Shown one piece after another: positions 2,748 through 61,750 of a stretch of DNA of 64,000 nt. Source of the stretch: Leucoraja ocellata. Its lineage: Eukaryota. The position numbers were made by a program, and so were the translations under genes. The stretch spans positions 62,001 through 126,000 of the forward strand of contig JAWMAR010000715.1 of assembly GCA_036785375.1 (NCBI GenBank), written 5' to 3'. The notes under the pieces are model-generated. The model ran no database searches and had not been told where the DNA came from. It worked only from the letters and a program-made list of their open reading frames with translations. Numbering within the stretch: the first letter of the stretch is position 1; each line of letters begins with the position of its first letter.

Positions 2748-3027
2748 GAAGATAGACACAAAACGGTGGAGTAACTCAGCAGGATAGGCAGTATCTCTGG
2801 AGAGAAGGAATGGGTGACGTTTTCGGGTCTTGACCCTTCTTCGGATTAGTCAGGGGAAAGGGAAATGAGAGATATAGACAGTGATGTAGAGAGATATAGA
2901 ACAAATTAATGAAAGATATGCAAAAAAGTAATGACGATAAAGGGAACAGGCCATTGTAAACTGTCCTGCTGAGTTACTCCAGCATTTTGTGTCTATCTCG
3001 GTTCAAATCAGAATCTGCAGTTCCTTC
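2748..3027. mobile_element. Penelope-derived short inverted-repeat element (hammerhead core degenerate)
   Basis: Family arms AGACACAAAA-GCTGGAGTAACTCAGC...GCTGAGTTACTCCAGC; 12-bp TSD ATTCCACATGCT (2736-2747 / 3028-3039); internal part matches the pLTR at 57.0-57.1 kb. Confidence 0.8.
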
Positions 3028-3329
3028 ATTCCACATGCTATTACTTGATCTAACAGTCACAACACCAAGTGTGGAAATGGGGGAATAGTAATCGGTGTTT
3101 AAATATGTACAGGTCCACCACTGATTTTTCCAGCTGCCTCCCCCACCTCCACAAAAGTCCCCCTAAAAACATGGTGTCTAGGTCTACCCTGATGTGCCAC
3201 CGTAAGCATCTTATATGTTTCAATGTAATCACCAACCTCCTATTCATCCAAAAACTAAATAAATTTAGATCTGATCTCTTTAGCTGCTCATGATAGAAAC
3301 CATGCTCTCATCCCATACATTTATTTTGG

Positions 3330-3855
3330 ACTTTCACTAATGCTAGTGTTTTCTTTCTTCAATAAGAGGACCAAAACAGTGCACAATACTCCAGATGTGG
3401 CCTTCATAAGTTCTAGGAGCAGAATTAGTCCATTCAGCCCATCAAATCTACTCTGCCATTCAACCATGGCTGACCTATCTTCCCCTCTCAGCCCCATTTC
3501 CCTGCTTTCTCCCCATAACTCCTGATACCCAAGGTAGACACAAAAATCCGGAGTAACTCAGCGGGACAGGCAGCATCTCTGGAGAGAAGGACTGGGTGAC
3601 GTTTCAGTTCGACACCCTTCTTCCTGACACCCATACTAATCAAGTATCTGTCAATCTCCACCTTAAAAATATCCATTGACTTGGCCTCCACAGCCGTCTG
3701 TGGCTATAAATTCCACGATTCACCACTCTCTGACTAAAGAAATTCCTCCTCATCTTCTTGCTAAAGATACGTCCTTTTATTCTGAGGCTATAACCTCTGC
3801 TCCTTGGCTCTCCCAGTAGTGGAAACATCTTCTCCACATTCACTCTATCCAGGAC
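3330..3855 (-). mobile_element. CR1 LINE 3' end, interrupted by a Penelope-derived element (3531-3622)
   Basis: ORF 3640..3843 (VEKMFPLLGE...RIKG...RRNFFSQRVVN) is the CR1 C-terminus. The insert is flanked by CCTGATACCC / CCTGACACCC (3521-3530 / 3623-3632). Confidence 0.8.
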
Positions 3856-4399
3856 TTAATGATACCCTATACAATTGTAACCAACTCTCAGAAAAGTCAT
3901 GTTAGAACTCACTCATTTGACTCATCCATGAAGAAAGGTCATTCAGACAAATGCTGGCGGAGTCTCTGGAAGTAGAGACAAAAACAAGAAGTAAAATAAA
4001 ATTAAATTGGATCCCTTTATTGTTTGGATGCATTGGAAAACAAAATATCCCGGGCAGTTCCAAAGAAGATTAACAGGAGAGCAACAAGTTGACAGAATAT
4101 AATAGGTTTATGTTTCAGCTCACAGTGTGATTATTGATGCAGAACTGGGAACAAACATTGATTGAAGACACATGTTGAGCCTGCGTGTGGATTTGGTTGC
4201 TTAACCACGTGACCCTTGGCGTGTACCTCACAACAACATTTCACGAGCTTTGGTTTAAAGGAAATTTTGAAAACACAACAGAATTATTTACAAGGGTAGC
4301 AAGTGAAGAACAGCTGGTCTTAATTGGCTCCGAGCTTTGAGGTCCTCTCGAAGCCTGTTTTCATCTTGGAAGTAAAATGGATATCTATTTCAGTGCACT

Positions 4400-4499
4400 A
4401 GAAGAAGGGTCTGAAGAAGGGTTTCAGACCGAAACGTTGCCTATTTCCTTCGCTCCATAGATGCTGCTGCACCCGCTGAGTTTCTCCAGCATTTTTGTG
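4400..4499 (+). mobile_element. Penelope-derived element with hammerhead core
   Basis: GGGT-CTGAAGA-AGGGTTTCAGACC-GAAAC-GTT-GCCT; exact 14-bp TSD TATTTCAGTGCACT (4386-4399 / 4500-4513). Confidence 0.85.
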
Positions 4500-4727
4500 T
4501 ATTTCAGTGCACTGTTGGGGTGGAGGGGGAAGGGGGGAAGAAGAGGATGGTAGTGTTGTCCTGAGGTTAAATAAATTGATCGGTTTCCTCCTTATGGTGT
4601 AGCATATGACAGCTTGAAAATAACAAAGCATTGGTTTATTTGGGGAAAATCAGTTTTGATAAACCAAATCACCTTTATTATAATATTGAATGGAATCACC
4701 AATGGCTCATTTGACAGCACCATTCAT

Positions 4728-5043
4728 GGCCAGCACGGTGGCATAGCAATAGAGCTACTGCCTGACAGCATCAGAGACCTGGGTTCGATCCTGACAACAG
4801 GTGCTGTGTGTACGAAGTTCGTACATTCTCCCCATGACCTGCGTGGGTTTTGTCTGAGGTCTTCGGTTTCCTTCCACACTCCAAAGACGCACAGGTTTGT
4901 AGGTTAATTGGCTTGGTATAATTGTAAATTGTCCCTAGTGTGTGTAGGATAGTGTTAGTGTGAGGGGATTACTGGTCGACACGAACTCGATTGACCAAAA
5001 GGCTTGTTTCCACACTGCATCTCCAAACTAAACTAAACTAAAC
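4728..5043 (+). mobile_element. tRNA-derived V-SINE (HE1-like)
   Basis: A-box-like GGTGGCATAGCAAT, B box GGTTCGATCC, V-domain, (AAACT)n tail. Confidence 0.85.
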
Positions 5044-5289
5044 CTGCACACTTTGTAGGTCCTAGACCAATCCAGGACCTCAAATGAGACTGATGGAGAA
5101 AGACCATGCACTACCCCAGGGAGGCTGCTGCACCATTAGAGATTCTATCCAATGGATGAAATATTAAACAGCATTCTACCTGCCTCTTTTGAAGGAATTT
5201 ATTCCCTTTGACCTGACCAACGTTCACCCTTCAATCAACATGAAAACAGTTTACCTAACCAATTATCCCAATGCTCTGTGCAAGCTTAA

Positions 5290-5498
5290 AGGGCCTGTCC
5301 CACTTAAGCGATTTTTTTTTAGGCGACTGCCGAAACTTTTTCAACATGTTGAAAATGTTTCTACAACAGTGGTGCCAATTTGGGCTGTCGTAGGTTGTTG
5401 CCAGGTGATGTAGGTTGTCGCCAGTGCTGACTTCGGTGAATTCCATCGTCCTAGTCGCTGGCAGTCGCCTAAAACATCGCCTAAGTGGGACAGGCCCA
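5290..5498. mobile_element. MITE, PIF/Harbinger-like
   Basis: TIRs GGGCCTGTCCCACTTA / TAAGTGGGACAGGCCC extended by AGGCGACTGCC / GGCAGTCGCCT; TAA and TTA flanks; no ORF. Confidence 0.8.
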
Positions 5499-5502
5499 TT
5501 AC

Positions 5503-6951: not shown

Positions 6952-7283
6952 TGCCCCTGTCCCACTTAGGAAACCTGAACGGAAACCTCTGGAGACTTTG
7001 CGCCCCACCCAAGGTTTCCGTGCGGTTCCTGGAGTTTTTTGTCAGTCTCCCTAATGGTCGAAAGTGGTTTCCGCTTCTTCTATGTTCCAACAATTATTTC
7101 AAAAAATTAAAAAACGGCCACGACTAAAAATAGGTTGCCGTTTTAAAAATCGGTAATTTTTTAGTCAAAACCGGTTGCGATGCTAGTTGAAGGTGGTTGC
7201 CGGAGGTTGCAGGTAGTGGAAGGTCTTACCTTCCACTACGCGCAACCTCCGGCAACCACCTTCAACCTCCGGTATCCACCTTC
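6952..7283. mobile_element. Truncated Harbinger-like MITE with internal 39-bp-arm hairpin, following a CR1 fragment
   Basis: TAA followed by left TIR TGCCCCTGTCCCACTTAGG; no right TIR; palindrome at 7186-7266. Confidence 0.65.
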
Positions 7284-9082
7284 ATTCTTGTGCTGTACTT
7301 TTGTATGTTCTCTGTTCTGCCATCCCATTCACCACCGTACATGGTTGCTGTAGTTTGAACCATCACCAGAATGTCTAAGTAACCTACCAAGGGTTAGCAA
7401 ACTAGTTACCAACTTCCTAACTAGACAAGCCACCTCCATCATCAAGCAAGACAAGCGTGGTAGGTGCATTGGAACACCACCAACTACAGATTCCCTCCTA
7501 GACAGACACCATCTTGAGTTGGAACTGCACTGTTGCTCATTCACCTGCAGAGTCGTCCAACTCAATGTGTAGGAAAGAACCGCAGATGCTGGTTAAATCG
7601 AAGGTGGACACAAAATGCTGGAGTAACTCAGCGGGACTGGTTGTGTGTAACCCCAACTCAATAGGCTGTGAGAGAAGATATGGGATTTCAGCACTTCACA
7701 AAGTTGCTTTAACTGCCTTTTCAAGACCAGCAGTGATGGACAATAAATGCTGCCCTTCCTGGCAATGTCTGTGCCACCAAAAATTAAATGTAAATAATAC
7801 ATTTTTTGCAATGACAAAGAACAGTAATATAAGTCCGTGTCAGGATAGTGCATGGCTCAAACTGCCCTTGTCTTTCCAGATGGTAAAGATTACTGTACCA
7901 TTTTTTTAATTTAACTTGTTGTTTGCCAGGATTTAAGTACGAATGCTGCGAAATTGGATCAATTTTCATATGCTTTTAGGTGGAAATCAAACATCGCTGC
8001 GTTTCATAACTCACGGAAAGTAAGCAGCAAAGCCTGCGGCAGGTTGGCAAGGAGACATGACGTGAAGGGTCTGGAATGTTCCATCAGTGTGTTGGTCTCT
8101 GGCTTCAGTTTTTTCTTCGTCATTGCATTTCCAGCAAGATGACTGAGCGTGCATTAACTTCTGGCAATCCCGCATAACTCGCTGCGACAGATGCATGTTG
8201 CACGCTTTGCCAGGGATGAGACCATGGCTCCCAGTGGCTTGGGACCTGCTCTGGCATCTCTGGCTTTGCCCCGGCCACTCAGTCTTAGCCTCAGTAGAGG
8301 CGCTGGGTGTCCAGGGTTTCTACCCGGCAACCCAGTCTTGACCATACGGTGGCGCTGTTGATCTTGGGCTTGTCCCAGTGGCTCAGTTCTCCTCGAACCC
8401 GCGACAAGGGACCACAGCAAGCAGGGAGGCAGCCCACCTTGTCCCCCTTCCTCTCGCTCTTCTTTCTTCTTCTCTCCTGCTTCTTCCTTCTCTCTTCTAG
8501 TCTGTGGGTAAAATGCCTGGGGTTTTATAGAGAGAAGGCTGACAAGGTTCAAATGGACAACCAATGCTTGAACTTAGCTATTACCTATTATGCTGGGGAT
8601 TGCACCTCTCTACCTGTCCAAGTGTCTTTTAAATGTTCTTATAGTCTGCTATCATCCCGTGGGCACCTTTCCATCAATTCGGGTCCCTTGGAACAACATT
8701 CTGAAATAATAATTGATCATAACTGAGCAAAACTCCAGAATATTCCCCTGCTTCTGCACCAACTCCCCCTCACCTCTGATTCTCATGACTTCTTGGCTCT
8801 GGAAACCTTTCACTGGCACGTTTGGGAGAACCTTGTTGTGACCAGGCCAACAATAATTCACCGACGAACACTGCAAATAAAAGAGGTTGGCGCAGCACGA
8901 CAACTAATGGGAGCAAGCTCTCCAGAAACCTTCCCTCATGTTTCCTACATTGCAACAGAGAATGCTAATTCAGAGCAAAACTCTATCGGCAGTAAAGTTC
9001 TCAAAGGTATTCTGAAGTTATGAGGTGCAATAGAAATACAACTCACTTACTGGCCTAATTTGGTTGTGTACATGTTCCTTAA

Positions 9083-10855: not shown

Positions 10856-11050
10856 TCAAGAAGGAACAGCAGATGCTGGAAATCAAAGGTAGACAAAAGT
10901 GCTGGAGAAGCTCAGCAGGTGCGGCAGCATCTGTGGAGCGAAGGAAATAGGCAACGTCTGAAGAAGGGTTTCAGCCCAAAACATTGTCTATTTCCTTCGC
11001 TCCATAGATGCTGCCGCACCCGCTGAGTTTCTCCAGCACTTTTGTCTACC
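10856..11050. mobile_element. Penelope-derived palindromic element
   Basis: Inverted arms around CTGAAGAAGGGTTTCAGCCCAAAAC; 17-bp TSD, 15/17 identical (10839-10855 / 11051-11067). Confidence 0.8.
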
Positions 11051-11845
11051 TAAGTATTGAGAGCTGTGGGCCAAACGCAAGCAGGTGAGACTAGTGGAGA
11101 TGGAACATCTTCGTTGGCATGTGCAACTTGGGCTGAAGGGACAGTTTACTTGCTATATAACTTCATAACTCTATAATTCAGATTCTTGGTCAAAAAACCC
11201 CAACATCTGGTGCAGTTTGAAGTGATTATATAAGATTAAAAATAAAACAAGAAATTCAGCTAGACTTGCTCCAAATTGTAACTCCTCATAGATTAGCATT
11301 TGTTTCTATTGGAATTGGTTACTGACTTAAAACTGTGTTAAATTTGACTAATTTCCACTTGAGAGATAGTTTTGAAATTCCAAAATAGCTGGGAAAACCA
11401 TAAACTGGCCATGCCTGTGCTTGGAGGTCTTTTTGTTGAATGCTTTGGCAGAATACCTCATCAACACCAGGACTTCCAAATAAGCACCAAGTTCTTTCTT
11501 GGCCAGTGGTTAGATGGGTCCTTCCTGTCAGCTCATTCATACGCTGCTGGAGTCTCTGGAACAAATATTGTGCATTCATCCTAGCTATTCCCCATATAAT
11601 TTCACACACCTATATGAGATTACCCCTCATCCTCCTGCGCTCAAAGGATTAAAGTCCTAGTCTGACCAACATCTCCTTAGGCCCTCGAGTCCTGGCAACA
11701 TGCTTGTAAATCTTCTTTGAATGTTTCCAGCTTAAAGGCATCTTTCCTACAGCAGGGTGACCAATAAAGAACACAATACTCCAAATGTGGCCTCACCAAT
11801 ATCTTATATGACAGTAACACAACATCCCAACTTTTATACTCAATT

Positions 11846-12040
11846 ACACACTAAAAGCTGGAGTAACTCAGCGGGTCAGACAGCATCTGTGGAGAGAAGG
11901 AATGGGTGATGTTTCCGGTTGAGACCCTTCTTCAGTCTGATCAGTCTGAAGAAGGGTCTTGACCCGAAACGTCACCCATTCCTTCTCTCCAGAGAGGCTG
12001 CCTGGCCCACGGAGTTACTCCAGCAATTTGTGTCTATACC
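11846..12040. mobile_element. Fully palindromic Penelope-derived element
   Basis: ~85-bp inverted arms centred on CTGATCAG; 10-bp TSD ATACTCAATT (11836-11845 / 12041-12050); nested in CR1. Confidence 0.85.
11942..11978 (+). ncRNA. Minimal type-I hammerhead ribozyme motif (best-preserved core)
   Basis: CTGAAGA (11946-11952), extra A, stem II GGGT-CTTG-ACCC, GAAAC (11966-11970), GTC (predicted cleavage after C11973). Stem I is weak in this copy; activity untested. Confidence 0.65.
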
Positions 12041-13429
12041 ATACTCAATTCCCTGACTGATGAAAGCCAGCTTGCTGAAAGTCCTCTTGAGCACCCTCTC
12101 TACCTATGTCAGCACTATGTATCTTTACTCCTAGATCTCTCTGCTCGACAGCACTCCTCAGTACCCTACAATTTACTGTGAAACTGTCCTGATTTGACTT
12201 TCCAAAGTGTAACATCTCATACTTGCCTCAGTTAAACTCCATTTCCCATTCCTCGGCCCAGCTAATCAAGAACCCGTTATAATTCTGAATAACCATGATC
12301 TCTTGATCTCATCTATTATGGTGTCATCTGCAAACGGTGGTGTCCTAATCCTTGGTGGGAAGGAAGGACTTTTATCAATGGGGTCTGGCAGGGTGAATAC
12401 CATTTCAAAGTTTGCATGGAAGTTGTAGCTCATGCATAAAAAGGTCAACATCTAGGTATCTTAGATACTTAAAAGGGACCACAGGGACACAGTTTTCACT
12501 CAGAGGGCAGTCTGTATCTGGAACAGATATATGGATAGGATGGGTTTGGAGGGCAATAGGTCAAATGCAGGCTAATGGGATTGGCCTAATATACCAACTT
12601 GGCTGGCATGGACCAGGTGGGCCAAGGGCCCTGTCGTACACCATTTTTCACTTCCTATTGATTTGTGTTGCCACTTTCAGGGAGCTGTGAACTTGGACCA
12701 TAAGATCCCTCTGTACAATGCCATTTAGTGTCCTAGCATTTACTCTATACTTTCATCTTATATTTGACCTCCCAGAGCACACAACTTCACATGTGCCTTG
12801 ATTAAACTCCATCTGTTATTTCTTTGCCCAATTCTGCAACTGATCTTTATCCTCATCTATTCTTTGATACCATTCATTATCAACAATTCCAATAGTTTTT
12901 ATGTAATCTACAATTGTACTAATCACATCATAGTTACATTAAATATGTTAGTTTACATAGACTTTTTTTTGACAATTTACATAGATATCATTTACAATAA
13001 ATGTTTATAAAAATTGTTGAACATTTTGCATATTTTAAAAATGGTAACCGTAATCAGATGTTCACACTAAATATATATCCTATATATAAGACAAAGTGCT
13101 GAAGTAACTCATGGGTCAGGCAGCATTTCTGGAGCACATGGATAGGCAATATTTTGTGTCAGGACCCTTCTTCAGACTCCATCTACAATTGCTCCACCCA
13201 TTTCTGCAACCATATCCTGCTGTATTCTTTGGTAACCTACTTCATTATCAACAAGTCCACAAGGTTTTGTGTCATCTGCAAACTTACTAATCAACCCATC
13301 GAGATGTTTGTACAAATCGCCTATAAATCTTGCAAACATTGCAGTTAAATTAACTCGGTTAAATTACAATGAATGTCTATTAAAATAATTTATTTTGTTC
13401 TTATTTATGAATGGTAACATTAATCAGGT

Positions 13430-14282
13430 ATTTACATTAAATATATATATGATGTATACTATATAGTTTCAGATACATAATGTATAATATATATTTTGTA
13501 TATCTATACTATATCTATACTATATATAGATACGGTAAATATATAGTAAATATATATGTGTATGATATATAAAGATACAACATATAAAATAAACAACATA
13601 TATAAATATATGCAAACAATTAACACATATATATAAATATATGAATATATAATTAAAATATACCCAATGTGACCCCTTTGGTCTGGTATAAATATCAATA
13701 TATGTATATATAAAGATAAAATATATATGTATAAAGATAAAATGTATATAAAAGAATATATATATACATATATATAATATGAAAATAATATATCTATTTA
13801 ATATATATTGACATATAATACATTTAAAGATAGACTATATATGTATATATCTTGTGTAGGAAAGAACTGCAGATGCTGGTTTAAATCGAAGATAGACACA
13901 AAATGCTGGAGTAACTCAGCAGGACAGGCAGCATCTATGGAGAGAAGGAATGGGTGACGGTTCGGGNNNNNNNNNNNNNNNNNNNNNNNNNNNNNNNNNN
14001 NNNNNNNNNNNNNNNNNNNNNNNNNNNNNNNNNNNNNNNNNNNNNNNNNNNNNNNNNNNNNNNNNNNNNNNNNNNNNNNNNNNNNNNNNNNNNNNNNNNN
14101 NNNNNNNNNNNNNNNNATATATATACATAATAAAACAAATATACATTATATGTTTTCTTTTTTATCTGTGCATATAAATATTAAATATATTTAAATATTT
14201 TTTTTTAATATATATAAATAAAAGAAGAGATATATATAAATATAAAGATAAAGAATATATAAAATATATATGATATATATAA
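13430..14282. other. Assembly gap (150 N, 13967-14116) with AT-rich low-complexity flanks
   Basis: N run; TA-rich degenerate flanks; a Penelope-derived arm (13854-13966) runs into the gap. Confidence 0.95.
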
Positions 14283-14449: not shown

Positions 14450-14630
14450 TGCGGCATCCAATCAAAGCCTTGCTGCGGCTCCTGAGTGGCAGGTGTGCCG
14501 GCCAATGGAGCGTGCGGCTGCGGTTGGACCAATGGCGAGGGTCGGCGGCGCTGGGGGCGGGAGCGGGGTTGCGCGTGCGCAGTGAGCGGTGCGGGGAGCG
14601 GCCGCGGTAGGGGCAACAAGTGTGGGCGGT
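14450..14630 (+). promoter_or_regulatory. CpG/GC-rich TATA-less Pol II promoter
   Basis: CCAAT at 14458, 14502 and 14529; GC box GGGGCGGG 14554-14561; NRF1 site TGCGCGTGCGCA 14570-14581 (reverse complement = YGCGCAYGCGCR); CpG-dense in a CpG-poor window. Confidence 0.85.
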
Positions 14631-14921
14631 GAGAGAGTGGTGGAGCAGCAGCGGCAATAGCAGCAGTAGATGCAGTAGATAGCAGCAGCTGCCCACTGCC
14701 TCCCCCCCCCACTGTACACCCACCCACTGCAACACAACACAACGAGACCTCAATCCACCAAACACAGCTCAGCCGGAGAGACAAAAGCTGCATTTTAAAG
14801 TAATCCAGGAAAAAGTGCAATGAGTTGGTCACACACATCCCTGAGAGAATGAGGACGCAGGCAATGAGTGAGCACAGTTAAAAGTTGCTGCTCCAGTCAT
14901 ATGTAACGAGGCCCCATTGAG
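14581..14921 (+). other. Putative non-coding first exon of an unidentified gene (start approximate)
   Basis: Follows the promoter; strong donor GAG|GTAAGG (14921/14922); every ATG opens a short ORF that closes inside the exon; GT/T-rich intron-like sequence follows. Confidence 0.75.
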
Positions 14922-16499
14922 GTAAGGAAGGCTTCGCTTTAGAAAAATAAAACCTTTTCTTGTCCCCTTAAATAAAAATGTGCTCCCAAAGTGTATGTGT
15001 GTTTGCAACCCTGTGTAATTCAATCTCCGTCCTTGTTACTTTGGGCTTTTGTTCTGTTTCTGCTCCAGCTTTGTTACCTGGTGTGTGTGTGAGTGTGTGT
15101 ATTTGTTTGTGGGTTTGGGGATACAATGTAACTGGGGATCGACTCCTTGCTTTGCATGTTTCACTTGCGCGTGTTGGTGTGTGTGTGTTTTTTTTAAGTT
15201 TGTCCCTTCCCTTTTTAAATCTTTTGAACTTTGCATTGGTGTTTTAGTTTCAGAAGTTATATTTTGCAGCCAGTTTTCTAGATTACTCCCCCCCCCCCCC
15301 CCCCCCCCACATTTGTTATTCGAGTGTAATTTATTTTCTTGAATTGAATTTCACTACAGTGTTTATTTGTGATATAGAATAATAACTTGCCTTTTGGGAG
15401 AAAAATATTTAATGTTTTCTTATTAGTCCCACATGTACTTTCTAAAGCAAGATCTTTATCCAGAATTAAAATTCAAAACGCATTTTGTATATCGTTATAT
15501 GTATCGTCGAAGGGTTCATTGTTATTCTTCCGTACCAGGATTTCGCTGGTAACAAAAGCTTCAGGTGCATTTAAAAAAAAAAACATTCTGTGGGTACATC
15601 TGCACAAACTGGCTACAGCTGCACAGTTGGATTGCTGAAAAGTTGCTCACAAATTAGCTTCACGATCAGGTTGCGGGGCTCCGTGTACACGGGTCTATTT
15701 CGTGTTGCTTTGTTTTCACTTGTTTAATGTTCGGTGTGAGGTTTATCTGCTAAAGCAGTAATTTATTTGGCAGGGCCACTAAACAGCAACGGCCGTAATC
15801 AGCTAGCAACTCTAAGTGATAAAAAGGGGTCACAATGTGTGACAGAGAATTGATCCCTGATGTCCGAATCCATAGCTGACATTTAGCGCTATTTTTTGTC
15901 TTTGTTTAAAAAAAAAGAGTTCTAGTCTTTGTTAACAATACCAGTTTGAAAATTGTTGCAACCTGTTTTAAAAAAAATAAGACGCAAGTTGCTGATTCTA
16001 AACATAGAAATCCTATATCAAGTCAAGAGAGTTTTATTGTCTTGTGTCCCAGAAAGGACAATGAAATTCTTTCGTACTGTTATAATAATAACAACCAGTG
16101 ATTTGTGCAGATAGTCAGTTCATGTATGCATGTTTCCTGGGAAAGATGTTTTAAATAAAACTTTGCCAAATTCCTGGAATCCCCTGCAAGAAACGCTGGA
16201 TTTGCAAGCCAGTGCACCTAACTGTGATAAGATCCTCCCATCGTTGGCAGGCCCTTTGCAGTGTCGCATCCAGTATGACATGTTTGGAAAAGTTTTGCAT
16301 GTGCACTCATGCCACCCGTCTAATACAACGTGTACAATCCAGACAGACTTTGTGGCCTTGTTTGGGATGTGGTACATCAACAGAGTGATAGCTTTTATCA
16401 GTTCCCAAGAACCAAGAGCATGAAGACTATCTGAGTGCTAAGGTTTCCGGTTTAATTCCAGCCTGGTGCATACGTAATCTATCCGTGCCCATGTTCGAC

Positions 16500-20168: not shown

Positions 20169-20194
20169 CAGAGATTCCTGGTTCTGGACTCTCC

Positions 20195-46989: not shown

Positions 46990-47529
46990 GTAAGTTTGCC
47001 ATAAATTGTGTAAAAAAATATAAATAATAATAATTATATAACCACCTTCCTCTTTCCTTTCCTAAATAATTAGCTGTGTGCATTATTGGTCTTGGGCTGT
47101 GTGTCTTTCTTGCACACATCAAGTGTTTGGTCTCGAATGCAGTTGTTCTTGGTCCCTGTTGTGAGGGTAAGCCTTAGCTATTGTTTGGAAGGAGCAGTTA
47201 TCAGTTTCAGTTTTGTTTCTTGTCACGTGTGCCGAGGTACAGGCAACATCCTCCCCCTATCTACCCATCAAGACCCCTGTGGATTCTGTTTCAATGCTAA
47301 AGGGCAGTGGAAATGAGCCTCGCCTGTCCAATGTTTTTCACACAAAATAATCCTCATTACAGCCATTATTTCAGCCAATCTCATCTGAACTGCGCCCATT
47401 GCATCAACCCCCCCTCTGTAAATAAGGAGACTGACAATGTGCACAATGCTCTAGACGTGGGCTTGCCAACTGAAGCAGAACCCCTCCATTTGTTTTGTAT
47501 TCTATTCTGGGGGAAATGTGTGTGCAGTG

Positions 47530-47650
47530 GGTCAGGATGGAGGGGCTGTGGGTATTACTTGAATTCAATGTGGTGCCACTGGGGTTTAGGCTACCCAAGT
47601 GGAATATGAAGTGCTGTGCTTTCAGTATGGACTTGTCACTGCACTGGCCT
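47530..47650 (-). mobile_element. Penelope GIY-YIG C-terminal remnant
   Basis: Minus strand reads ...LKAQHFIFHLGSLNPSG, similar to the copy at 57.2-57.3 kb. Confidence 0.6.
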
Positions 47651-49159
47651 CTCTCCTCAAAGATAAAAGAAATGAAGGAATTGATTTGTTAAATTTGTTC
47701 TTTGATTCTGTTTATGCTGGTGCAGAATTTGCACCAACTATTTTGCATGAGATTTAAGGAAAGGGTTATGGCGAATTTCATAAGTTATCAGAGCAAATTT
47801 ACGCCATTCGGCCCATCAAGCTTACTCTGGTATTCAATCACGGCTGATCTATCTTTCCCTCGCAGCCTTCTCCTCAAAACCCCTAACACCATGCTAATCT
47901 GGAATCTGTCAATCCCCGCTTTAACAATACCCAATGACGTGACCTCCACAGCGATTTCCACAGATTCACCACCCTGGCTTTGAATTTGCTGCCTTGCCAG
48001 CATTCTGCAGCCAAATGATGATGTGAAGTTAGCTTGCACCTCCTTGCAATTGCACTATTAATCCTCTCTGCTAAAGATGGAAAATGTTGAATAGGTTCAG
48101 CAGATCAGGCAGCATCTGTGGAAAGGAAAACAGTTGTCGTTTTAGGTCTGGAGCCCTTTCTCAGAACTGGGAAAGAGGAAAAATCAAATTAGTTTCCACT
48201 TTAAAAACTTGTCATGGGATTAGGTCCAGCAATTATTGCTTCAGAATACCTGCTGGTTGTCAGCATACCCAGACATTTGTCTCAACCACTTTGTCTCTTT
48301 CTGATGAAGAGTGGGTTAAAATGACTGCTAGATGTCTCTTGATTTGCTGTTGGGAGGATGGATGTGGTCTGGGCTCTGTACTGTTTGACAATCGGCATAG
48401 ATGGTCGGAACATCTTGGTTGATTGTGGTGGGGAAATGATCAAAGGATGTACCTGTGCAGCAGAAATCGAGTTGTGCCCTTTGAGCCGTGCTGTGTGTGT
48501 GTCTCTGTACTTTTGTAAATTTCTTGCATTGTGTTAAACTCTTGAAAAAGTCGCACCTGGTAAATATCAATTCTGGATAGGGACCAAATTGCATTTTAGG
48601 TTTTCTTTTAGCGCGGAGCTCTTCGCTAATTGATTTTTGTTTAGTCTGCATTTGTGGAGTTTATCGGTTAGCGGTGAGCTGCTGCACAGAGCTTCCAGTG
48701 AAGCTTTTATACTTCTGAAGCACACTTGTCTATTGAATTCTGTTGGGATGCAACTCTAAGGTTTGTCAACCGTTCAAGATTTCCTACATTTTCTAGTTGC
48801 CCGAACGTGCTATGAATTAAGATGATTGTTTACTATTCTAATTGGTATAAAATAATGACAAATGGTGTCAATTAGCTGAGGTATGGATTAATGTGTAGGT
48901 GTAAGAGATGATGGCATGAGGTTAGAGAAGGTATAGTGAAACTCGATTTAGAGGGGATGTTCACTTAATGCCTCTGTGCATCTTCTCTTTAAACATTTAT
49001 CTTTTTTATCTACACTGGCTTTGTATTTACAAACATTTTATCCATGCACCACAATACTGTTCAAACAAGGCTGCCTGCCCCCCCCCCCCCCCCCCCCCCC
49101 CCCCACCCCACCCCCTCCCCATCCAACCTTGTCGGTTCCCAGCTCCCATGTGGCCCCTT

Positions 49160-49455
49160 TTTACCTTCGCCCCAAATTCCTTCAGCAGAACCTCCCTGGC
49201 AAACCCATCGTTTCTGCCTGCTCCTGCCCCACTGAAATAATTTCTGCAAACCTCGATTCCATCCTATTTCACGCCCCCCCCCCCCGGATCCAATCCCTTC
49301 CCACCTATGTCTAAGACATTAAAGTTCTGAGGAAGTGTCCCGACCCAAAACATCACCTGTTTCTTTTCTCCAGAGATGCTGCCTGACCTGCTGAGTTACT
49401 CCACCACTTTGTGTCTATCTCCGGCATAAACCAGCATCTGCAGCTCCTTCCTGCA
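49160..49455 (+). mobile_element. Penelope pLTR remnant
   Basis: Pyrimidine-rich body, then CTGAGGAAGTGTCCCGACCCAAAACATC and the family arm. Confidence 0.65.
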
Positions 49456-52308: not shown

Positions 52309-52444
52309 AATGCAGGAAGAAACTGCAGATGCTGGTTTATACCAAAGATAGACATGAAGTGCTGGAGTAACTCAGCCGGCCAGGCAGCATCTCTGGAGAA
52401 AAAGGGGTGACGTTTCATGTCAGTCTTTTTCAGACTCTCGAGTC
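52309..52444. mobile_element. Penelope-derived element nested in a minus-strand Rex1/Babar fragment
   Basis: 12-bp TSD TACTTTCTAAAG (52297-52308 / 52445-52456). Confidence 0.8.
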
Positions 52445-52713: not shown

Positions 52714-52876
52714 GTTTAAGAAGGAACTGCAGATGCTGGAAAATCGAAGGTACACAAAAATGCTGGAGAAACTCAGCGGGTGAAGAAGGGGTTTGGCCCG
52801 AAACGTTGCCTATTTCCTTCGCTCCATAGAATGCTGCTGCACCCGCTGAGTTTCTCCAGCATTTCTGTGTACATTC
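52714..52876. mobile_element. Penelope-derived palindromic element
   Basis: 10-bp TSD GTGACTCTTT (52704-52713 / 52877-52886); core GTGAAGAAGGGGTTTGGCCCGAAACGTT. Confidence 0.82.
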
Positions 52877-55800
52877 GTGACTCTTTACTCCTTTAAAGCT
52901 GCTCATTAATAGCAGCTCTTTATGCAAGCTTGCGAACATTTTCCATAATACCTTTATTTACTTATTATTATTTAATAACAATAATAATACATTTTATTTA
53001 TGGGCGCCTTTCAGGACTCTCAAGGACACCTTACAGCAAATTACAAACATATAAACAAAATGAGACAAAGTAGTAGGGACAGCAACAATACACAATTCAA
53101 AGAGAGAGCTTCGGCAACTAGTCGTGCCAGCGTTCACGCACCAGGCCCCCTCTTCTTGTAACGTCCATGTGTAAAAAATCTCATGGTGCAAGGCTGGAAA
53201 AGGTGCAAGGAGTTCAACAGATGTCCTGCCAACATTCTGCTTTTAGTCAACATTGCCACAGATGATTAATTGGTGACTCCCTCCTTTCCCTTTTGTGGGA
53301 CCTTTGTGTGCAAGCAGGCAATAATATTTACCTGTTGAACCATGATAGAACTCTGTAGTTCATTGTACACTGAGATGTTGACAGAATGATAAGATACTGT
53401 AAATGCATAGTGTATTTGCAATCTGCTCCACCTGTTTAAAGGCAGTAATAGGCTTTCCTTTGAGTATCATGACCCAGTTCATTTGCACCCATAAGAGGCT
53501 TACAAAACCAGCGCCAAATGTGACGCAGTGAAAACTTGGACAATTGATTTCTAAAAGCAGTAGAACGCAGGTTAGAATGTATGAACGTTATTTCTTCTCT
53601 TGACATTTTCTTGACCAAAAAAATAAAATTGGACTATTTCAGTGTTGAGAGTTTGCTATTAAGGATTTCTGGTGGTTTGTTTGTATTTATTTGGGTAGGT
53701 GCGGAGAAGCAAATGTTCTGAGCAGTTAAGCACTCCCTTTCTCAGGACTGAACTGCCGAAAGTGATGTTCTGCTTATAAACGGCACCATTCATTCCCTGA
53801 AACCATTTATGTACAAGGAAACCAGTCTAGTAAATTATGTCAAGTGGAAGGTTGTCTGTAAATAGTGCACTTTTTATTTCAGTCTAATTGCTCACTTCCT
53901 TTAGTTCGGTTTTATTCCCGTGCCAACAGAGCACCCGACAGACCACATATATTGCTCATCTCCTTCATAGTATGGCAGTCGGTAGCAGCCAAAAGCCTAT
54001 GGATTTCCCTGATCTTTGATTATAGGCGAATAAAGAATTTCCTCCTAATTCTTTTCACCCCTTATTTTCTTGCCTTGAATGTTGATTTGGAGATTTTATG
54101 TAAATACAGCAGAGGAAGAGTCCCTTGAGGGATTCTGTCAAAACTTTCTTCAGCAAAAACTTTCTTACAGTGATCTCATTTCCATGCCCATGCTCATATC
54201 ATTTTGTGTTCTCCATTTTCCTTTTTTTTTCTAAATCTCAATCTTTGTTTCAAAAGCCATTTGAGCCAATGTATTCTGTACTTCTAACACATCTGTGTGG
54301 GAGGGATTCCTCTGATTTCTCTTTTTAAATGTTCTGATAATTATGAGTCGACAGCTCCTGTTACTAATTCACCAACCAGCTGGCACGATCTTTCACTAAC
54401 TACTCACTCAAAACGATTATGTTAAACATCTGTTGGATTTCTCCTTGAACTTCTCTCTTCCGGTGGAAAGGGGCAATTTTCTCCTTGTGCTTTTGTAACA
54501 CTGAGCAGGGGATCGTAAATTCTTTCTTGGATTGCAATATCCCGGGCATGAAACCCTCTGAACTGTATACTGTCCCACTGTGGTTCAACTAATGACACAA
54601 ATAAAATAAAATCTGGTAGTCTATGTATCCTGTTTGCCTTTTGCCTTCCAGCTGTGTCTTGTGAGTATGTGTATAGCTACACCTCCTGGATCCCACTTTC
54701 CCTCGGTTTGCATTAAGCAGGTGCTGGCTATGGTCCAGGTGGCAGTCCTTTGAAATCTTAACCTGTGCTTGTAAGACGTGACGATGTCGCTGGGTTTAAG
54801 GTGCCGGCGCTGACCAAACGTGATTGTCCATCCTCACGGTGGCACCTCTTTATCTAATTCCGAGCACTATCGTTGTCACTTCTTCCTCAGTGTACATGTT
54901 CATGGTCAGGCAGCTGTGGCCGTGACTGCACCCAATTTACCACCCCATCCACTGTCATTTCATTTCTAACTCCCTTTCTGTTCCCGTCGTCTGAATTATT
55001 TCAATACTGAGGAGTAATTGTATTCGCTCCTTCGTACTCGACCACAATAATTGCCAGATTTAAGCCGGTGCTATTTTCATTTTCACACCAGAATACAACA
55101 TTTTGGGGTAAAAGCCACGTTGCAAGACTAGAATGTGTCTCAATCTCCTGTTTGCAGCACAATTGGTGAGGATCTTCACTGGAGACCTTTGAGCAATCTT
55201 TAATCCAACTTCAATGTTATATCTTGCATGATATGTTGGGGGCACCTTTAACCTTTATCAGTGGACTATGGTTAGCTTGTTTGTATTCACGTATAGTCTT
55301 TTATTTGACTGGATCGCGCGCAAACAAATGCGATTCACTTTCCTTGGTGCACATGGCCTTAAACTAAGGTATTAAGCTTTGTTTTCTCTCCTCCCCCCCC
55401 CCCCCCCCTCTTTCCGCCCGGTGTGTGATCAGAGGCAATTTACAAACTGCTTGACCATGACTTCACATCAATCACAGCTGTCTCATTCACGGGGTTATTG
55501 TGTTGATTGGTGCTAATTAATAATCCTTTGAACTAAATTTTTTTCCATTGACACCACTTTGAATTCCCGTTCTTTAAATTATAATGCGTTTTGGAGAAGT
55601 TTGCAGTTCACTATTCTATTCTGGAGTTTCCAGATGCCCTGTAGCAGCCTTGTTTGTGCTCTTGTATTAAGGGTTTCCTTTCCTCCCCTCCTGCCGAGTG
55701 TGCCATATGTATTCTAGCTTACCTGCTGCTATAAGAGTGGACGTTTTCAAAGTGGATCCAAGAAACGCTGCCCCATGAGAGGGGCGCTTAAGTGCAGTCC

Positions 55801-56924
55801 CTTGACACGGCCTGATGATGCTAATGGCTGCTTAAACACAAATGTGCTGGAAGTGCACAGCAGGTAGAATTGCTTTGGAGAGGAAGATAGTTAGGGTTTC
55901 ATGCTGGGACCCTTCTGCAAGAAGGCTTTTTAATGAACGATGTTGACATGCAGTGCTGGTTCAGATGCTAATTGATTGCTGCACTTATTTTATATTTCCA
56001 ACTTTTTTTTTTAAACTGGCTCTAAAATCCATTTGATTTTCATGGTTTCTCTGTTAGCAATTGAATAACCTAATTATTGGCAAAGCAAGTCTTTTAGCAA
56101 ATTAGTGAGATGGCATAAAAAGTCTGGTGTTTTAAAATAAATCTAGATTGATTGAACAGGAAATATTGGACCAAAAATGCAGGTCAGGCCATTCCCAGAG
56201 TATTGTCTACAAATTTGGTTCCCTGCGTTGTAAAAATATTTGGTAGTACAGAAATTGGTCACTGGATGAATGCCTGGGATCAGGAGGTTGTCGTGTAACA
56301 AACGATAGAGTAGACTCACTGTAGTCTCTAGAGCTTGGAGGAATAAGGTGAGATCTTGTCAACGTTCAACAGAATCTTGCACCTTGACATTGTGGATGGT
56401 GTGAGGAGGTTTGCCTGTGTAAGGGACGTCTGTTCTGGGGGACACAGTCTCAGCAAAAGGGTTGGCATTAAAGATTGAGATGATGAATTTCTGGTTGGAA
56501 GTGAGGATTCTGCATCCAATAGTTGTGCAGCATCTTTAATGCCGAGAGATTTTTCGATGAGTGACTAGAATTCTGGAGATCAGACATAAGAATGGATTGA
56601 GGTCAGCAATTAGATCAGCACAGGATCATGGGGTCTTGTGTAGGAAGGGACTGCAGATGTTGGAATAGCTACTTCCCCACAGCCATCAGGCTATTAAACT
56701 CGGCTTGGCCAAAACTCTGAACATTAATAGCCCATTATTTGTTTATTTGCACTTTATCAGTTTATTCATGTATTATATTTATATAATGGTATATGGACAC
56801 ACTGATCTGTTCTGTATTCATGCTTACTATGTTCTGTTGTGCTGAAGCAAAGCAATAATTTTATTGTCCTATCAGGGACGCATGAGAATAAACTCTCTTG
56901 ACTCTTGGTTTAAACTGAAGCTGG

Positions 56925-57324
56925 ATTAGCTCAGCGGGACAGGCAGCATCTCTGGAGAGAAGGAATGGGTGACGTTTCAGGTCGAGAACTTATTCAGATT
57001 AGAGTCTGGGGAAAGGGAAACGAGTGATATAGACATTAGAGTAGAGAGACCTAGAACAAATGAACAAATGAACAAAAGACATGCAAAAAATGTACTAATT
57101 ATAAAGGAAACTGACTATTTGTTAGCTGTTTGCTAGGTAAGAACGAGAAGCTGGTGCGACTAGGGTGGGGGAGGGATCAAGAGAGAAGGAATGCAGTGGT
57201 TACTTGAAGATAGAGAAATCATACCACAGGGTTGTAAGCTGCTCAAGTGAAATATGAGATGCTGTTCCTCCAATTTGCATTTAGCCTCACTCTGACAATG
57301 GAGGAGGCCTAGGACAGAAAGGTC
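56925..57324 (-). mobile_element. Penelope-like element 3' end: GIY-YIG endonuclease C-terminus plus pLTR with degenerate hammerhead
   Basis: DLSVLGLLHCQSEAKCKLEEQHLIFHLSSLQPCGM (within ORF 57160..57462), contiguous with the repeat-family arm. Confidence 0.85.
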
Positions 57325-57769
57325 TTGTGATTTCTTTATCTCTTTCAAGGGAATTGAATCCATTTGTAGCGATTTCAAGGTGGGGACACTGCCATTATGG
57401 GCAGTCGCAGTAACCCCCCCCTCCCCCAATGTGAAGAGAATTTGTGCACATACATCATCCACTCTTCAGAAGTATTGATGTTGATCATGGGACTTGGGAC
57501 CTCTGGAAAAAACATCGAAGCCGCTCTCGTAATGTGCTAATGTAATTTGAGTTCCATCATACAGGATATAGACACAAGAAGCAGGAGTAACTCAGTGGGT
57601 CAGACAGCACCTCTGGAGAAAAGGAATGGGTGACATTTCGGGTTGAGACTCTTTATCAAGAATCCAAGAATTGCAGCAGTTCTTACATTGATTACACAAA
57701 ATATTTTTTATCAACAAAATCACCATACAGGTCTTTGTAGACCAGTGGCAACATTAATGTAAACCCCTC

Positions 57770-58128
57770 AAACAGCACCTTCCAAATCGGAGACCTACAC
57801 CGCTTGGTCAGCTTTCAACCCAGTGGTATTAATATTGATTTCTCTAATTTCAAGCATTCCCTCTCTCTCCATCCCTCCCACACCCAAGTTGCACCAGCTT
57901 CTCGTTTTCATCCAACATACAGCTACAATGGTCTGTTTCCTTTATCATAGTTTCTTTTTTGCATATCTTTAATTCATTGTTCTTTATCTCTCGACATCAT
58001 CTATATCTCTCATTTCGCTTTCCCCCGACTAGTTTGAAGAAGGGTCTTGACCCAAAATGTCACCCATTCCTTCGCTCCAGAGATGCTGCCTGTCCCGCTG
58101 AGTTACTCCAGCTTTTTGTGTCTACCTC
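57770..58128 (+). mobile_element. Penelope-like element 3' end (second copy, opposite orientation)
   Basis: SFQPSGINIDFSNFK remnant, pLTR body, then TTGAAGAAGGGTCTTGACCCAAAATGTC and the arm. Confidence 0.8.
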
Positions 58129-58221
58129 TACCGCAAAGATGGACAATGGCAACAGGGACAAGGGAACACAACTGCCTGCCGTTTCTCCTCCAAGTCATCC
58201 ACCATCCTGATTTGTTGGAGA

Positions 58222-58375
58222 CGCAAGGAACTGCAGATGCTGGAATCTTGGGTAGAACACAGTGCTGGAGTAACTCATCGGATCTGAAGAAGGGGTGCCA
58301 ACCTGAAAGATTGAACTATCAAAGTTCACCAGACATGCTGCCTGTCCTGTTGGGTTACTTCAGCACTTTGTGTTC
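58222..58375. mobile_element. Penelope-derived palindromic element (degenerate)
   Basis: AAGGAACTGCAGATGCTGG...CTGAAGAAGGGG...GAAA...GTTACTTCAGCAC. Confidence 0.7.
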
Positions 58376-60747
58376 CATTCTGTTCCTTCTTATTGCTGAA
58401 CCCAAATTCTTGGAGTACCTTTACCCGAAGCACTAGCAAATTAAGAAAGTTAAAAGATAGCGATGAAGTGCCTTGAGGGATGAGCAACATACTGTGACCC
58501 CGCCAACAATGATTACATCCTGCAGAATAAGTCTCTCCAAAATGGCTGGATTCTCCAGATTCCCTTAGGATTGGTAACAGACCTGGTGTTTTTTTATGGA
58601 AGGTAAGTTTGATGATGTTTAACAAACAAATATCAGTATCAGTAATTTACCCAGGTTGGTTGCCTTGCCTGCACTTCAGAACACTGGAGGCCAGTACATA
58701 AGTGCAGTGTAGTTCTTGACCTGCTCCTAGAACCTGTGCTGAACGATAATGAGTATCCATTCTTATTTTTCAGGCCGTTATTGCCTTCGGGCTGTTGTAC
58801 AACAGCGCGCAAGCTGGTGGTTCCTTGTATAATTGTAAAGCCGTTTTTTTGGCCAGTGTTATCTTGCCTGTTGCCTTTGGGCTGCTGTCTGTGAAAGGAG
58901 GAACAGAGTCAGGCCTGTTTTCATGCTGCATCAGGGTGAATGATTTTAAAATAATTCAATTCGGGGATGTGAAAAGGAACTTTGTTTTATAAATGCCCAC
59001 TGCTTCTCCATGCAAACCCTCTCTGACAGCTACAATTCACGAGTAATATTGAAGAAGGGAAGACTGATAAAGCTTGCATTGATGAGGAGCAGAGTCTGGA
59101 TGTGAGCATAAGGTAGTATAATAGAAATCCCACATCAGCCTGTGACCACCTATAAAGTGGCAGTTGAGTTTTTGGGCTGTGCGGACTAAAGGGAAATGGA
59201 CTTCTGTGTGCAGCTGTTTAGAATTGCAAAACACTGACTGTTAGTAGAAACCTTGATGGAAGTGCAAGAGGACTTCTCTATTGCAGCAGGAAGCAAAATT
59301 TGATACCTTTGCAAGAAAATGAGATCTGGTTTTCATGGGATTAAAAATAAAATGGGACCCCTGGAACTCATGGCTAGGTGTTGGGGCAAATGTAATAACT
59401 CAACAATATCTCAAATATATTCAAGTTCTAAACTGATAGCACTAAAGAACAGCATAAACAAATAACCTTTTTTGGTCTGAAGGGTCCCGATCCGAAATGT
59501 CAACCCATTCATTTTCTCGAGAGATACTTAGTTACTCCGGCACTTTGTGTCTACCTTTAGCACAAAAGAACAGCATTCAGTGGGCTCTTGACCGCCCTCA
59601 TCTCATCCATGTGTTGCCCTTCCAGATCTTAAAACATCCCTCAAATCAAGGTTCCCAACCCAAAATGTCCATTCGCTCCTCTGATGCTGCCTGATTTGCT
59701 GAATTCCTCCAGCACTTTTTGTTAGTCTCACATTTGCCTGATTTTTTTATTTTTTTTATTTTTTTATTATCCAAGCACCAACACTCTTCCCTTTGTGCCC
59801 TTTTCCACCTCTTGCCACCATGTGATGTTTACTGCCTTGATGACACAATTTAATGTGGTTAATTATTGTTTAAATGTTTCATTGCCTTAAAAGAAAATAA
59901 TTGTTCATTTGGCCACCGTGGAGTTTGTAAAATAAGGGTAAGAGTTGGTAATTTAGAATGGGAAGACCTAAAACTGTATTGGGATGAATGATTCTAGTAG
60001 TCACTTTAATAATAATGAAGGCCCACCTTAAGCCTGTTAAAATAGATTTGTTCTAATCATTGGGCCTGCAGTGATTAGCTTTTATCATTAGTGTGGCTAA
60101 TAAAACATGAATTTGCCATCATTGTGAACTGGGCAGATGAATGAATGAAATGAGTGTGTGATATTTTATGAAAACGAGCATTCTGCAAAGAATTAAACTC
60201 CCAATTAAGCTCACAATCTGTGTACGTGGTTTCAACGAGCAGTTAATTGCATCAGCTATGCGCTTGTTCGAGTCTGCAAGCAGGTAAACCACATAAAATA
60301 GGGCATTGAAGGAAGTGGATTTTCAGCCGTTCTTTCCATTGTCGCAGTGTTGCAATTTACTTTGTGAAACGAGCTGAGCATCAGTGTATTGTGAAGAGAG
60401 ATGCTGTACACACCACATTCACTTGCACCACTACTGAACGGATTAACAGTCAATTGTTTGCAGTTAGACTGTGCTGTGTACTTTGTTAGAAATAACAGTT
60501 TAGAAATGGTCTATTGCACACGGTGCCCATTTTCTCCCATTTTGTTGTTTGGATGTTGGGGATCAGGACAAAAACCAGCATTCACTGCCCTTGTGTGGTT
60601 ACTTGTGAGGTGTGTGGTAGTTCAGCTGTGCACAGTACTTTGATACAGTAGGGTTGTCGAGCACATCTGTTGTTCTGGAGTCGGGTGTGGGGGCCAGATC
60701 AGGCAAGGGTTGTGCATTTCCTCCCTTAATGGCAACACTGCACAAAA

Positions 60748-61035
60748 GGGCGGCACGGTGGCGCAGCGGTAGAGTTGCTGCCTTACCTCGCCGGAGACCC
60801 AGGTTCGATCCTGACCACAGGTGCTGTCTGTACAGAGTTTGTACGTTCTCCCTGTGACTGCATGGATTGTCCCTAAGTGCACCGGTTTCCTCCCACACTA
60901 CAAAGACGCACAGGTCTGTAGGCTAATTGGCTTCAGTAAAAATTGTAAGTCAGTAGAATAGTGCTAGTGCACAGGGATCGCTGGTCGGCATGGACTCAGT
61001 TGGACAAAGGGCCTTTCTAAACTGAATTAAACTAA
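60748..61035 (+). mobile_element. HE1-like V-SINE, full length
   Basis: A box TGGCGCAGCGG (60759-60769), B box GGTTCGATCC (60802-60811), V-domain, AAACT-type tail. Confidence 0.9.
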
Positions 61036-61279
61036 TTAGATGTGTGGTTTTTGTGGTTATCATAATTATCCTCTTGTATATATGCCAGATTAATTTAAAT
61101 TCTGCAGTACTGTGTAGCGAAATAATAGTGCAGACTTGGTTTACTAGCCAACCAACATCAATACTATGTCATCATACCTTTGTGAAAATGCTACCGATTG
61201 TGCCTATGTATAGTAAGATTTTCATTGAACTGCAAAAAGGGATTTCATTGTATCTAGGTATATGTAACAATAATATACC

Positions 61280-61750
61280 ATAGTCATACAGTGTGGGAAC
61301 TTGCCCACACTGACCAAAATAACCCATCTTCACTCGCTCCACCTGCTTGCGTTTGGCTAGTATCCCGCTAAACATATCCTATCCATGTACCTGTTGAAAT
61401 GTTTCTTAAACGGTGCAATAGTATCTGCCTCAAACACTTCCTCCAGAAGCTCATTCAATACACCCACCACCCTTTGTGTAAGAAAAAATGTTGCCCCTCG
61501 GGTGAACCATTGAACTATTAAATCCCAGTTTTTGTCCTTTTATGAAGACACATGGAACTACAGGTGCTAGATCCTTGAGTAAAACAGTGCTGAAGGAACT
61601 CGGCAGGTCTGGCAGAATCTGCGGTGGGAATGGAGAGGCAATGTCTCTGGTTCGGGACCCAGTCAGAAGAAGAGTCCCAACCCGAAGTGCCGCCTTGTCC
61701 ATCCCCTTCCCAGAGACTGCCAGGCCCGCTGAGTTCCTCCAGCACTTATA
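61280..61750. mobile_element. CR1 3' fragment (-) followed by a Penelope-derived palindromic element (~61555-61750)
   Basis: Reverse CR1 3' UTR; arms GTGCTGAAGGAACTCGGC / GCTGAGTTCCTCCAGCAC around a collapsed core. Confidence 0.7.

Follow-up and report, generated by a model that had tools for sequence, protein, structure and literature searches.

What is the short repeat that recurs through a 64,000-nucleotide (nt) stretch of the skate Leucoraja ocellata (contig JAWMAR010000715.1, positions 62,001 to 126,000), and why does it so often appear as two inverted arms around a hammerhead ribozyme core? The stretch, here called the window, has a G+C content of ~43%, is repeat-dense, and contains one assembly gap. 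A first-pass annotation proposed 25-30 copies of a palindromic, non-autonomous, retrozyme-like family derived from Penelope-like elements (PLEs). The copies are likely the pseudo-long terminal repeat (pLTR) ends of a Neptune-type PLE family with several subfamilies, left by ordinary target-primed retrotransposition in a cartilaginous fish. Such elements are known as a class, with minimal hammerheads in PLE pLTRs, inverted copies, and tails all published. The whale shark is reported to be rich in PLEs (10.1101/443036), and a literature search returned no description of this repeat family in skates or sharks.

The repeat was modelled with nhmmer from 15 seed stretches over four iterations on the window. 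The model gives 57 arm matches at 2740-61748 and none in each of five dinucleotide shuffles or in the reversed window; the repeat is therefore real, and the earlier copy number is too low. Together the matches account for 6057 bp (9.5% of the window) and fall into 41 loci, made up of 16 head-to-head pairs and 25 single arms, with no tail-to-tail pair among them. An arm tree resolves several subfamilies of different ages. Arm positions are given relative to C3 of the hammerhead core (position 0), in the orientation of the core.

The arms are joined to the end of a PLE open reading frame (ORF). At 57326-56645 on the minus strand, a reading-frame end is followed by a pyrimidine-rich stretch of ~200 nt and then by an arm. 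This frame end is 77% identical over 35 amino acids (aa) to a Leucoraja erinacea protein, and its closest relatives are proteins of the little skate, a second skate, a ray, and sharks. A protein search with the ORF-end region retrieves seven longer proteins. A Pfam GIY-YIG match is present in all five of the homologs scanned, above the curated cut-off in two, and a reverse transcriptase (RT) match in three. The same five proteins share a C-X4-C-X2-C linker, and the one that is long enough has a DKG motif; the linker region is seen in database homologs and lies outside what the window remnants cover. Pfam does not match GIY-YIG on the window's own endonuclease remnant, where it returns just one weak unrelated match. 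With tblastn, three endonuclease-end remnants (57324-57193, 57795-57860, and 47643-47557) and one PLE RT remnant of 55 aa (49153-49317) are found in the window. The first two endonuclease remnants, on the minus and plus strands respectively, continue into untranslated region (UTR), core, and arm, and the RT remnant is enclosed with the arm that follows it by a single 12-bp duplication. In the shark Stegostoma, one protein extends beyond the usual stop into SPSLMKGLRPKRQ, parallel to TSLKKGLDPKCH across the core in the window, and the same motif thus appears to follow the ORF there. Because of these ORF-end, RT-remnant, and Stegostoma linkages, the repeat is, judged from sequence, the 3' pLTR of a PLE with the core on the sense strand. 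The PLE origin given in the first-pass annotation is thereby upheld.

The element is probably of the Neptune type. The linker and DKG features are described for Neptune and Nematis PLEs, with the linker motif also in Nematis (PMC8557442). Neptune elements encode an RT followed by GIY-YIG with a CX2-5CxxC linker between the two, an order found here in the homologs, where the linker reads C-X4-C-X2-C. They also show 5' truncation, an inverted 5' copy, a 30-40 bp tail that is usually at one end, and a pLTR hammerhead. The window differs in holding ORF remnants and mostly very short pLTR-only insertions. No pLTR-ORF-pLTR partial-tandem copy occurs in the 64 kb. A tRNA-headed short interspersed element (SINE) as the source of the arm was considered and rejected, as ARAGORN finds no tRNA genes in the window. 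Predicted skate myocardin and neuromedin-U receptor isoforms at NCBI include the PLE endonuclease end, which suggests that the PLE repeat leaks into gene models. About a tenth of the window is PLE pLTR sequence that a repeat annotator could mislabel as miniature inverted-repeat transposable elements (MITEs) or microRNA hairpins.

The copies carry the footprint of retrotransposition. A flanking duplication scoring at least 10 is found in 9 of the 16 pairs and 12 of the 41 loci, whereas 400 mismatched flank pairs reach that score in 0.5% of cases. Across 21 loci chosen for having one, the duplications vary from 8 to 17 bp, and they are 64% AT where the window is 57% AT. The 3' ends of the arms are bimodal: they stop at about +90 to +100, or continue as a tail to +118 plus a few bases, giving two alternative 3' ends ~30 nt apart. 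Exactly one arm is tailed in 14 of the 16 pairs, neither in 2, and both in none. Without one re-copied pair described below, the rule holds in 14 of 15 (p=0.0017 under random placement).

Two arms meeting head to head, one of them extended by a ~30-nt tail, are the textbook form of a PLE insertion. This anatomy is summarised for PLEs generally in PMC8557442. The Penelope of the rotifer Adineta vaga has inverted pLTRs, a 31-bp tail on one side, and a 9-10 bp duplication (PMC3846280). Its Pen2, Pen2a, and Pen3a elements resemble the skate copies in these traits, with duplications of 8-10 bp, and in the capture of unrelated DNA between the pLTRs. They are low-copy, long, ORF-containing inserts, unlike the dozens of 100-300 bp inserts per 64 kb seen here. 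The purified protein of PAc, a Poseidon element of Anolis carolinensis, cuts and extends both strands, and its reverse transcription starts at two internal sites whose spacing equals the tail (PMC11167929). PAc shares with the skate copies two 3' ends a tail apart, AT-leaning targets, and copies that do not end at the hammerhead cut site. It differs in belonging to the Penelope/Poseidon clade and in an ORF that starts at stem II, where most skate arms have no start codon.

Palindromes are mostly made afresh at insertion and are mostly not the replicating unit. In 14 of 16 pairs, the two arms are closer to each other than to the median other arm; paired arms mostly have their diagnostic bases in common, and several subfamilies in the arm tree each form palindromes. 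Most copies, read by eye, have junctions of their own, either overlapping by 1-5 nt or filled by 2-26 nt. Since most junctions vary, a separate non-autonomous family is not needed, and the earlier idea of a palindromic family spreading as a unit is not supported. One exception was identified. The tail-less pair at 41651-41841 was copied from 41935-42175 and belongs to a composite insertion that has a 17-bp duplication; the source arm is tailed, and the copy stops at ~+94, ends that agree with the internal RT starts. Palindromes can thus occasionally serve as templates, as this one local re-copying shows. Beside the re-copied palindrome, at 42150-42225, is a 35-bp inverted repeat with a 6-nt spacer, within which the copied flank ends.

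The 5' ends of the arms indicate what was copied. They were curated by eye for 53 arms; the matches at 13862 (assembly gap), 41651 and 41758 (duplicates), 47517 (armless), and 37716 (merged with 37541) were left out of the 57, and a tail piece at 41542 was added. Among curated arms that reach +2, 26 of 32 stop within -6 to +2, where 1.4 would be expected from the downstream truncation rate. Only 1 of the 45 curated arms at risk ends 4 nt or less from the cleavage site, against 1.9 expected. An uncurated strict alignment gives 18 of 55 stops at the 5' edge of the core and 1 of 55 at the cleavage site. Because the stops fall at the core edge and hardly any at the cleavage site, the templates of inserted copies were not cut at the hammerhead site, as is reported for PAc, in which hammerhead cleavage is not needed for insertion (PMC11167929). 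Five tailed arms (2961, 7635, 32098, 52781, and 58281) stop instead at +56 to +61, a second truncation hotspot just 5' of a conserved GCTGAGTTACTCCAGC box.

The 5' boundary sits on TCAGT, downstream of a pyrimidine tract. By its consensus, the TCAGT could be an initiator. It could also be the start of a short source element, or, as a further candidate, a 3' splice site. The intron of D. virilis Penelope ends at helix I (PMC4209133), and a Penelope intron lies 46 bp past the start (PMC2377424). A shared upstream exon, as left by a spliced template, is not supported: 14 upstream 30-mers do not match the upstream model, and their average similarity to one another is no higher than random. The best upstream-flank pair scores 9, a level reached by 0.35% of random pairs (91 comparisons).

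The one-tail rule and the core-edge stops fit two-site priming of both DNA strands on uncleaved RNA. The PLE endonuclease would cut the two strands 8-17 bp apart, and each 3' DNA end would prime reverse transcription on uncleaved PLE RNA. One strand would prime at the outer start site and gain the tail, and the other at the inner site, giving a tail-less arm. The two cDNAs would then be joined at their far ends through 1-5 nt of microhomology or short filler, forming the palindrome anew at each insertion. The hammerhead would be the normal minimal pLTR motif of the element, a passenger that these insertions do not need. The one-tail rule and the sharp 5' boundary tie the genomic copies to the two in vitro start sites, and the high copy number permits a statistical test of how PLEs make inverted ends.

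A more detailed form of this scheme is offered tentatively, as somewhat more doubtful than assured. Most short copies would come from the 5' pLTR of an ordinary PLE transcript whose RNA 5' end is the 5' edge of the hammerhead. A dimeric RT-endonuclease would prime both cut strands at internal sites ~95 and ~125 nt from that RNA end, and each event would leave a hairpin-forming mini-element with one tail. If true, the PLE mechanism would be recorded across the genome in the one-tail rule and the 5' boundary, the choice between twin priming and antisense self-priming would be settled, and skate genomes would be a dense source of re-copiable intronic double-stranded RNA hairpins.

Several observations weigh against twin-primed PLE insertion as the source of the arms. 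The window has no full-length element, and the partner ORF is known from remnants of 22-55 aa and from other species. A strong duplication is missing from 7 of the 16 pairs, and one independent pair, 11846-12040, is tail-less on both arms. The pairs 32037, 52722, and 58226 nearly share one junction (+58 to about -2), with differing diagnostic bases. Microhomology at junctions is compatible with twin priming and with the antisense self-priming of PMC3846280 alike. Random truncation does not predict the sharp 5' boundary, which could point to dedicated short source elements.

Such a source would be a distinct SINE-like, non-autonomous PLE derivative of ~125 nt that starts just before the core and supplies most copies, with palindromes forming during its insertion. 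This is possible, if doubtful. The excess of arms ending at the core edge, in both the curated and the automated counts, is what it would produce. One palindrome was demonstrably re-copied along with its flank, and non-autonomous PLE derivatives are on record (PMC8557442). The same subfamilies also yield copies that reach the UTR and ORF, however, and a short arm shares one duplication with an RT fragment. The 5' end of an ordinary PLE transcript would give an equal boundary without a separate element.

Self-priming keeps the PLE origin and makes the inverted arm by fold-back on an antisense template, the published model for head-to-head junctions in rotifer Penelope (PMC3846280). Several junctions here have the short palindromes or microhomology that it would use. 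Among the 14 one-tail pairs with curated 5' ends, the arm that extends further 5' is the tail-less one in 7 and the tailed one in 4, with 2 ties and 1 ambiguous case; the 6 in which the tailed arm reaches as far or further, and perhaps the ambiguous one, are allowed by fold-back. In 7 of the 14, each arm holds sequence that its partner lacks. Neither arm in these pairs is therefore a copy of the other, and a simple fold-back of the first cDNA is excluded for them. A PLE protein in vitro extends both target strands on sense RNA (PMC11167929), which also speaks against self-priming. Self-priming on antisense RNA is compatible with these data, and the self-priming route overall is fairly unlikely.

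The hammerhead is a minimal type I motif of the PLE kind, as had been recognised. At 11946-11973 on the plus strand, the core order CUGANGA-A-stem II-GAAA-CG-UH is present exactly as first annotated. The majority motif and this copy fit the published minimal PLE consensus in core, bulge, G10.1-C11.1, palindromic 15.2/16.2, and NUH. Helix I consists of two pairs (U-A or U-G, followed by G-C) and stem II of four, and there is no helix III. Minimal PLE hammerheads of fish, coelacanth, and Xenopus (PMC4209133) share CUGANGA, the unpaired base before stem II, G10.1-C11.1, GAAA, the palindromic CG, and UH, and the fish examples there have core letters identical to the window motif. The 4-bp stem II and 2-bp helix I here fall near the lower limit of the published lengths. 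That source already reports single motifs by the thousand in a genome, as well as opposite-strand pairs, and its searched parts include none from cartilaginous fish.

Few copies retain the motif. All 11 core bases and at least three of four stem II pairs remain in 9 of 31 core-spanning arms, 4 of which also keep CG at 15.2/16.2. The copy at 11946 is the only complete motif of the 31 (CG, 4/4 stem II pairs, 2-bp helix I). The second example put forward earlier, 24357-24330 on the minus strand, is real, but it is just a 37-bp fragment that has lost the self-complementary CG at 15.2/16.2 to decay and reads CA there. A core on both strands of a palindrome, assumed earlier as general, is the exception: C3 lies within both arms in only 3 of 16 pairs (11841/11926, 24790/24856, and 27397/27525). 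Conservation is 90% in non-CpG core columns, 84-87% downstream, and 65% in CpG columns, and in 15 of 44 arms G12 has become A. Losses follow neutral CpG decay, and the core has fared scarcely better than the arm, so selection on the core is rejected for the genomic copies.

Covariation and folding were also analysed. Across 29 arms, 82.9% of positions in helices I and II are paired against 79.7% when shuffled (13/500), with both-side changes at 4 pairs (68/500) and in 6 cells (42/500); RNAalifold predicts no consensus pair on them. A stem of AUGCUG with the first CAGCAU box was rejected as an RT recognition signal, having no covariation (77.4% paired against 78.2% shuffled). The translated arm, used as a protein query for cross-species covariation, had no matches among eight candidates. 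An Rfam scan matched no hammerhead family: nothing reaches the gathering score across the whole window, and the 15 weak matches in 11800-12100 are to non-specific hairpin families. The predicted pairing probability of stem II is below 0.01 in the 11943-12036 arm, 0.000 in three palindromes, and 0.84-0.99 in the fragment at 24322, where no downstream arm is present. The 11845-12036 palindrome is predicted as a single hairpin of -142 kcal/mol. In these models, palindromic transcripts would pair arm against arm rather than as a hammerhead; opposite-strand cores cannot form a dimer on one transcript, and the long hairpin abolishes stem II. A double-hammerhead dimer was disfavoured by the predicted folding of two 43-nt copies (-12.7 against -22.9 kcal/mol for the best dimer). 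Published PLE hammerheads are weak or protein-assisted (PMC4209133, PMC11167929).

These results make it very improbable that the repeat is a retrozyme, that is, a self-cleaving, circular-RNA-forming non-autonomous element. Metazoan non-LTR retrozymes are head-to-tail tandems with type I hammerheads that are expressed as circles (PMC7229834; bioRxiv 2026.07.22.740005). The skate copies resemble them in hammerhead type and core order, in being short and non-coding, and in pLTR kinship, and pLTR-derived retrozymes are reported in one chondrichthyan genome (bioRxiv 2026.07.22.740005). The copies in the window are instead dispersed, single or head-to-head, and flanked by target duplications. None of 18 TRF rows corresponds to the arm unit, and no adjacent direct pair with two cores was found. 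The missing helix III, the 2-bp helix I, the scarcity of ends at the cleavage site, and the loss of stem II in predicted folds also argue against the retrozyme label of the first-pass annotation. The same annotation had read the insertions as retrotransposon-like rather than as MITEs, correctly: a MITE or other DNA-transposon derivative with terminal inverted repeats would explain short, abundant, inverted arms, yet it is refuted by the run of arms into a retrotransposon ORF and the variable duplication length, and 25 of 41 loci are single arms while the two ends of pairs differ by the tail.

Table 1. PLE-derived loci in the window (positions of the 64,000-nt stretch; a dot marks loci with arms on both strands).
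Feature	Position	Strand	Details
Head-to-head pair	2748-3027	.	Tail-less arm ~130 nt into UTR; tailed arm from +56; 10-bp duplication
Single tail-less arm	3526-3623	-	12-bp duplication
Single tail-less arm	4409-4506	+	13-bp duplication
Single tailed arm from ~+58	7575-7640	-	10-bp duplication
Head-to-head pair, second subfamily	10862-11054	.	Tail left; 17-bp duplication
Head-to-head pair, tail-less on both arms	11846-12040	.	Both begin 5 nt before C3; 10-bp duplication 11836-11845 / 12041-12050
Best-preserved minimal hammerhead	11946-11973	+	C3 11946, H17 11973; 4-bp stem II, CG 15.2/16.2, 2-bp helix I
Single tail-less arm	13090-13178	-	
Tailed arm cut by assembly gap 13967-14116	13862-13966	-	
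Old single arm	17297-17433	+	
Single arm with some UTR	18308-18442	-	
Old head-to-head pair	21148-21367	.	Tail left
Single tailed arm from +33	23848-23936	-	8-bp duplication
Core fragment of 37 bp	24322-24358	-	Second example of the first-pass annotation
Head-to-head pair	24790-25003	.	Tail left; 12-bp duplication
Head-to-head pair	25594-25786	.	Tail right
Head-to-head pair, core on both strands	27397-27607	.	Tail left; 10-bp duplication
Head-to-head pair, second subfamily	27896-28074	.	Joined within stem II; tail right; 17-bp duplication
Single arm fragment	28313-28375	-	9-bp duplication
Head-to-head pair	32037-32196	.	Tailed arm from +58; 13-bp duplication
Old arm fragment	34682-34731	+	
Single tail-less arm	35695-35790	+	8-bp duplication
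Tailed arm through UTR to about the stop codon	37541-37778	-	Two HMM matches
Composite insertion	41539-41836	.	Inverted tail piece, core fragment, ~55 bp of host flank plus palindrome copy; 17-bp duplication
Copied palindrome in 41539-41836	from neighbour 41935-42175	.	Without its tail
Head-to-head pair	41909-42122	.	Tail on left arm; 14-bp duplication; source of the 41539-41836 copy
Head-to-head pair, ambiguous junction	42818-42995	.	Tail left
Old head-to-head pair	46512-46719	.	Tail left
Isolated GIY-YIG ORF-end remnant, armless	47517-47649	-	tblastn 47643-47557
Old arm	48070-48180	-	Core flanks would give a 5-bp helix I (by eye)
Composite insertion	49057-49451	+	RT fragment 49153-49317 (in-frame stop), tailed arm 49326-49448; both enclosed by one 12-bp duplication
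Single tailed arm from -3	52318-52444	-	12-bp duplication
Head-to-head pair, second subfamily	52722-52877	.	Tailed arm from +58; 13-bp duplication
Old single arm	55815-55920	-	
5'-truncated PLE	56645-57326	-	ORF end 57324-57193, 3' UTR, decayed core, arm; 9-bp duplication
Tail of the 56645-57326 PLE	56645-56663	-	Separated by a later insertion
Single tail-less arm	57561-57659	-	
5'-truncated PLE	57782-58129	+	ORF end 57795-57860, UTR, core, tail-less arm; 11-bp candidate duplication
Head-to-head pair	58226-58380	.	Tailed arm from +58
Two diverged direct arms, 74 bp apart	59479-59731	+	59479-59574 and 59648-59731; not a tandem array
Old head-to-head pair	61554-61748	.	Tail left; 10-bp duplication

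The assembly gap at 13967-14116 consists of 150 N; it interrupts a tailed arm at its stem II hairpin, within a TA-rich stretch. A palindrome may have broken the assembly at this point.

The region 14490-14930 on the plus strand is GC-rich and has, by eye, two CCAAT boxes followed by a likely first exon with a GTAAG donor near 14922. If this is a first exon, many downstream copies lie within introns of a plus-strand gene.

A second abundant family of ~300 bp, with a short simple-repeat end, is present at 843-1159 and 12 other places (e.g., 4731-5043, 34856-35165, and 60747-61027). It is probably a SINE; ARAGORN finds no tRNA gene. Four repeat clusters of 12, 10, 6, and 4 segments, at 17675-18083, 18573-19004, 44945-45515, 30144-30363, 36800-37001, and other positions, resemble the 3' ends of CR1-type long interspersed elements (LINEs). 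A broken LINE reverse transcriptase is found at 19083-19766 on the plus strand (Pfam RVT_1, E 4e-14), with stops further on. The inverted repeats at 7186-7266, 30881-31204, and 5287-5501 are unrelated to the PLE arm and are possibly true MITE-like elements.

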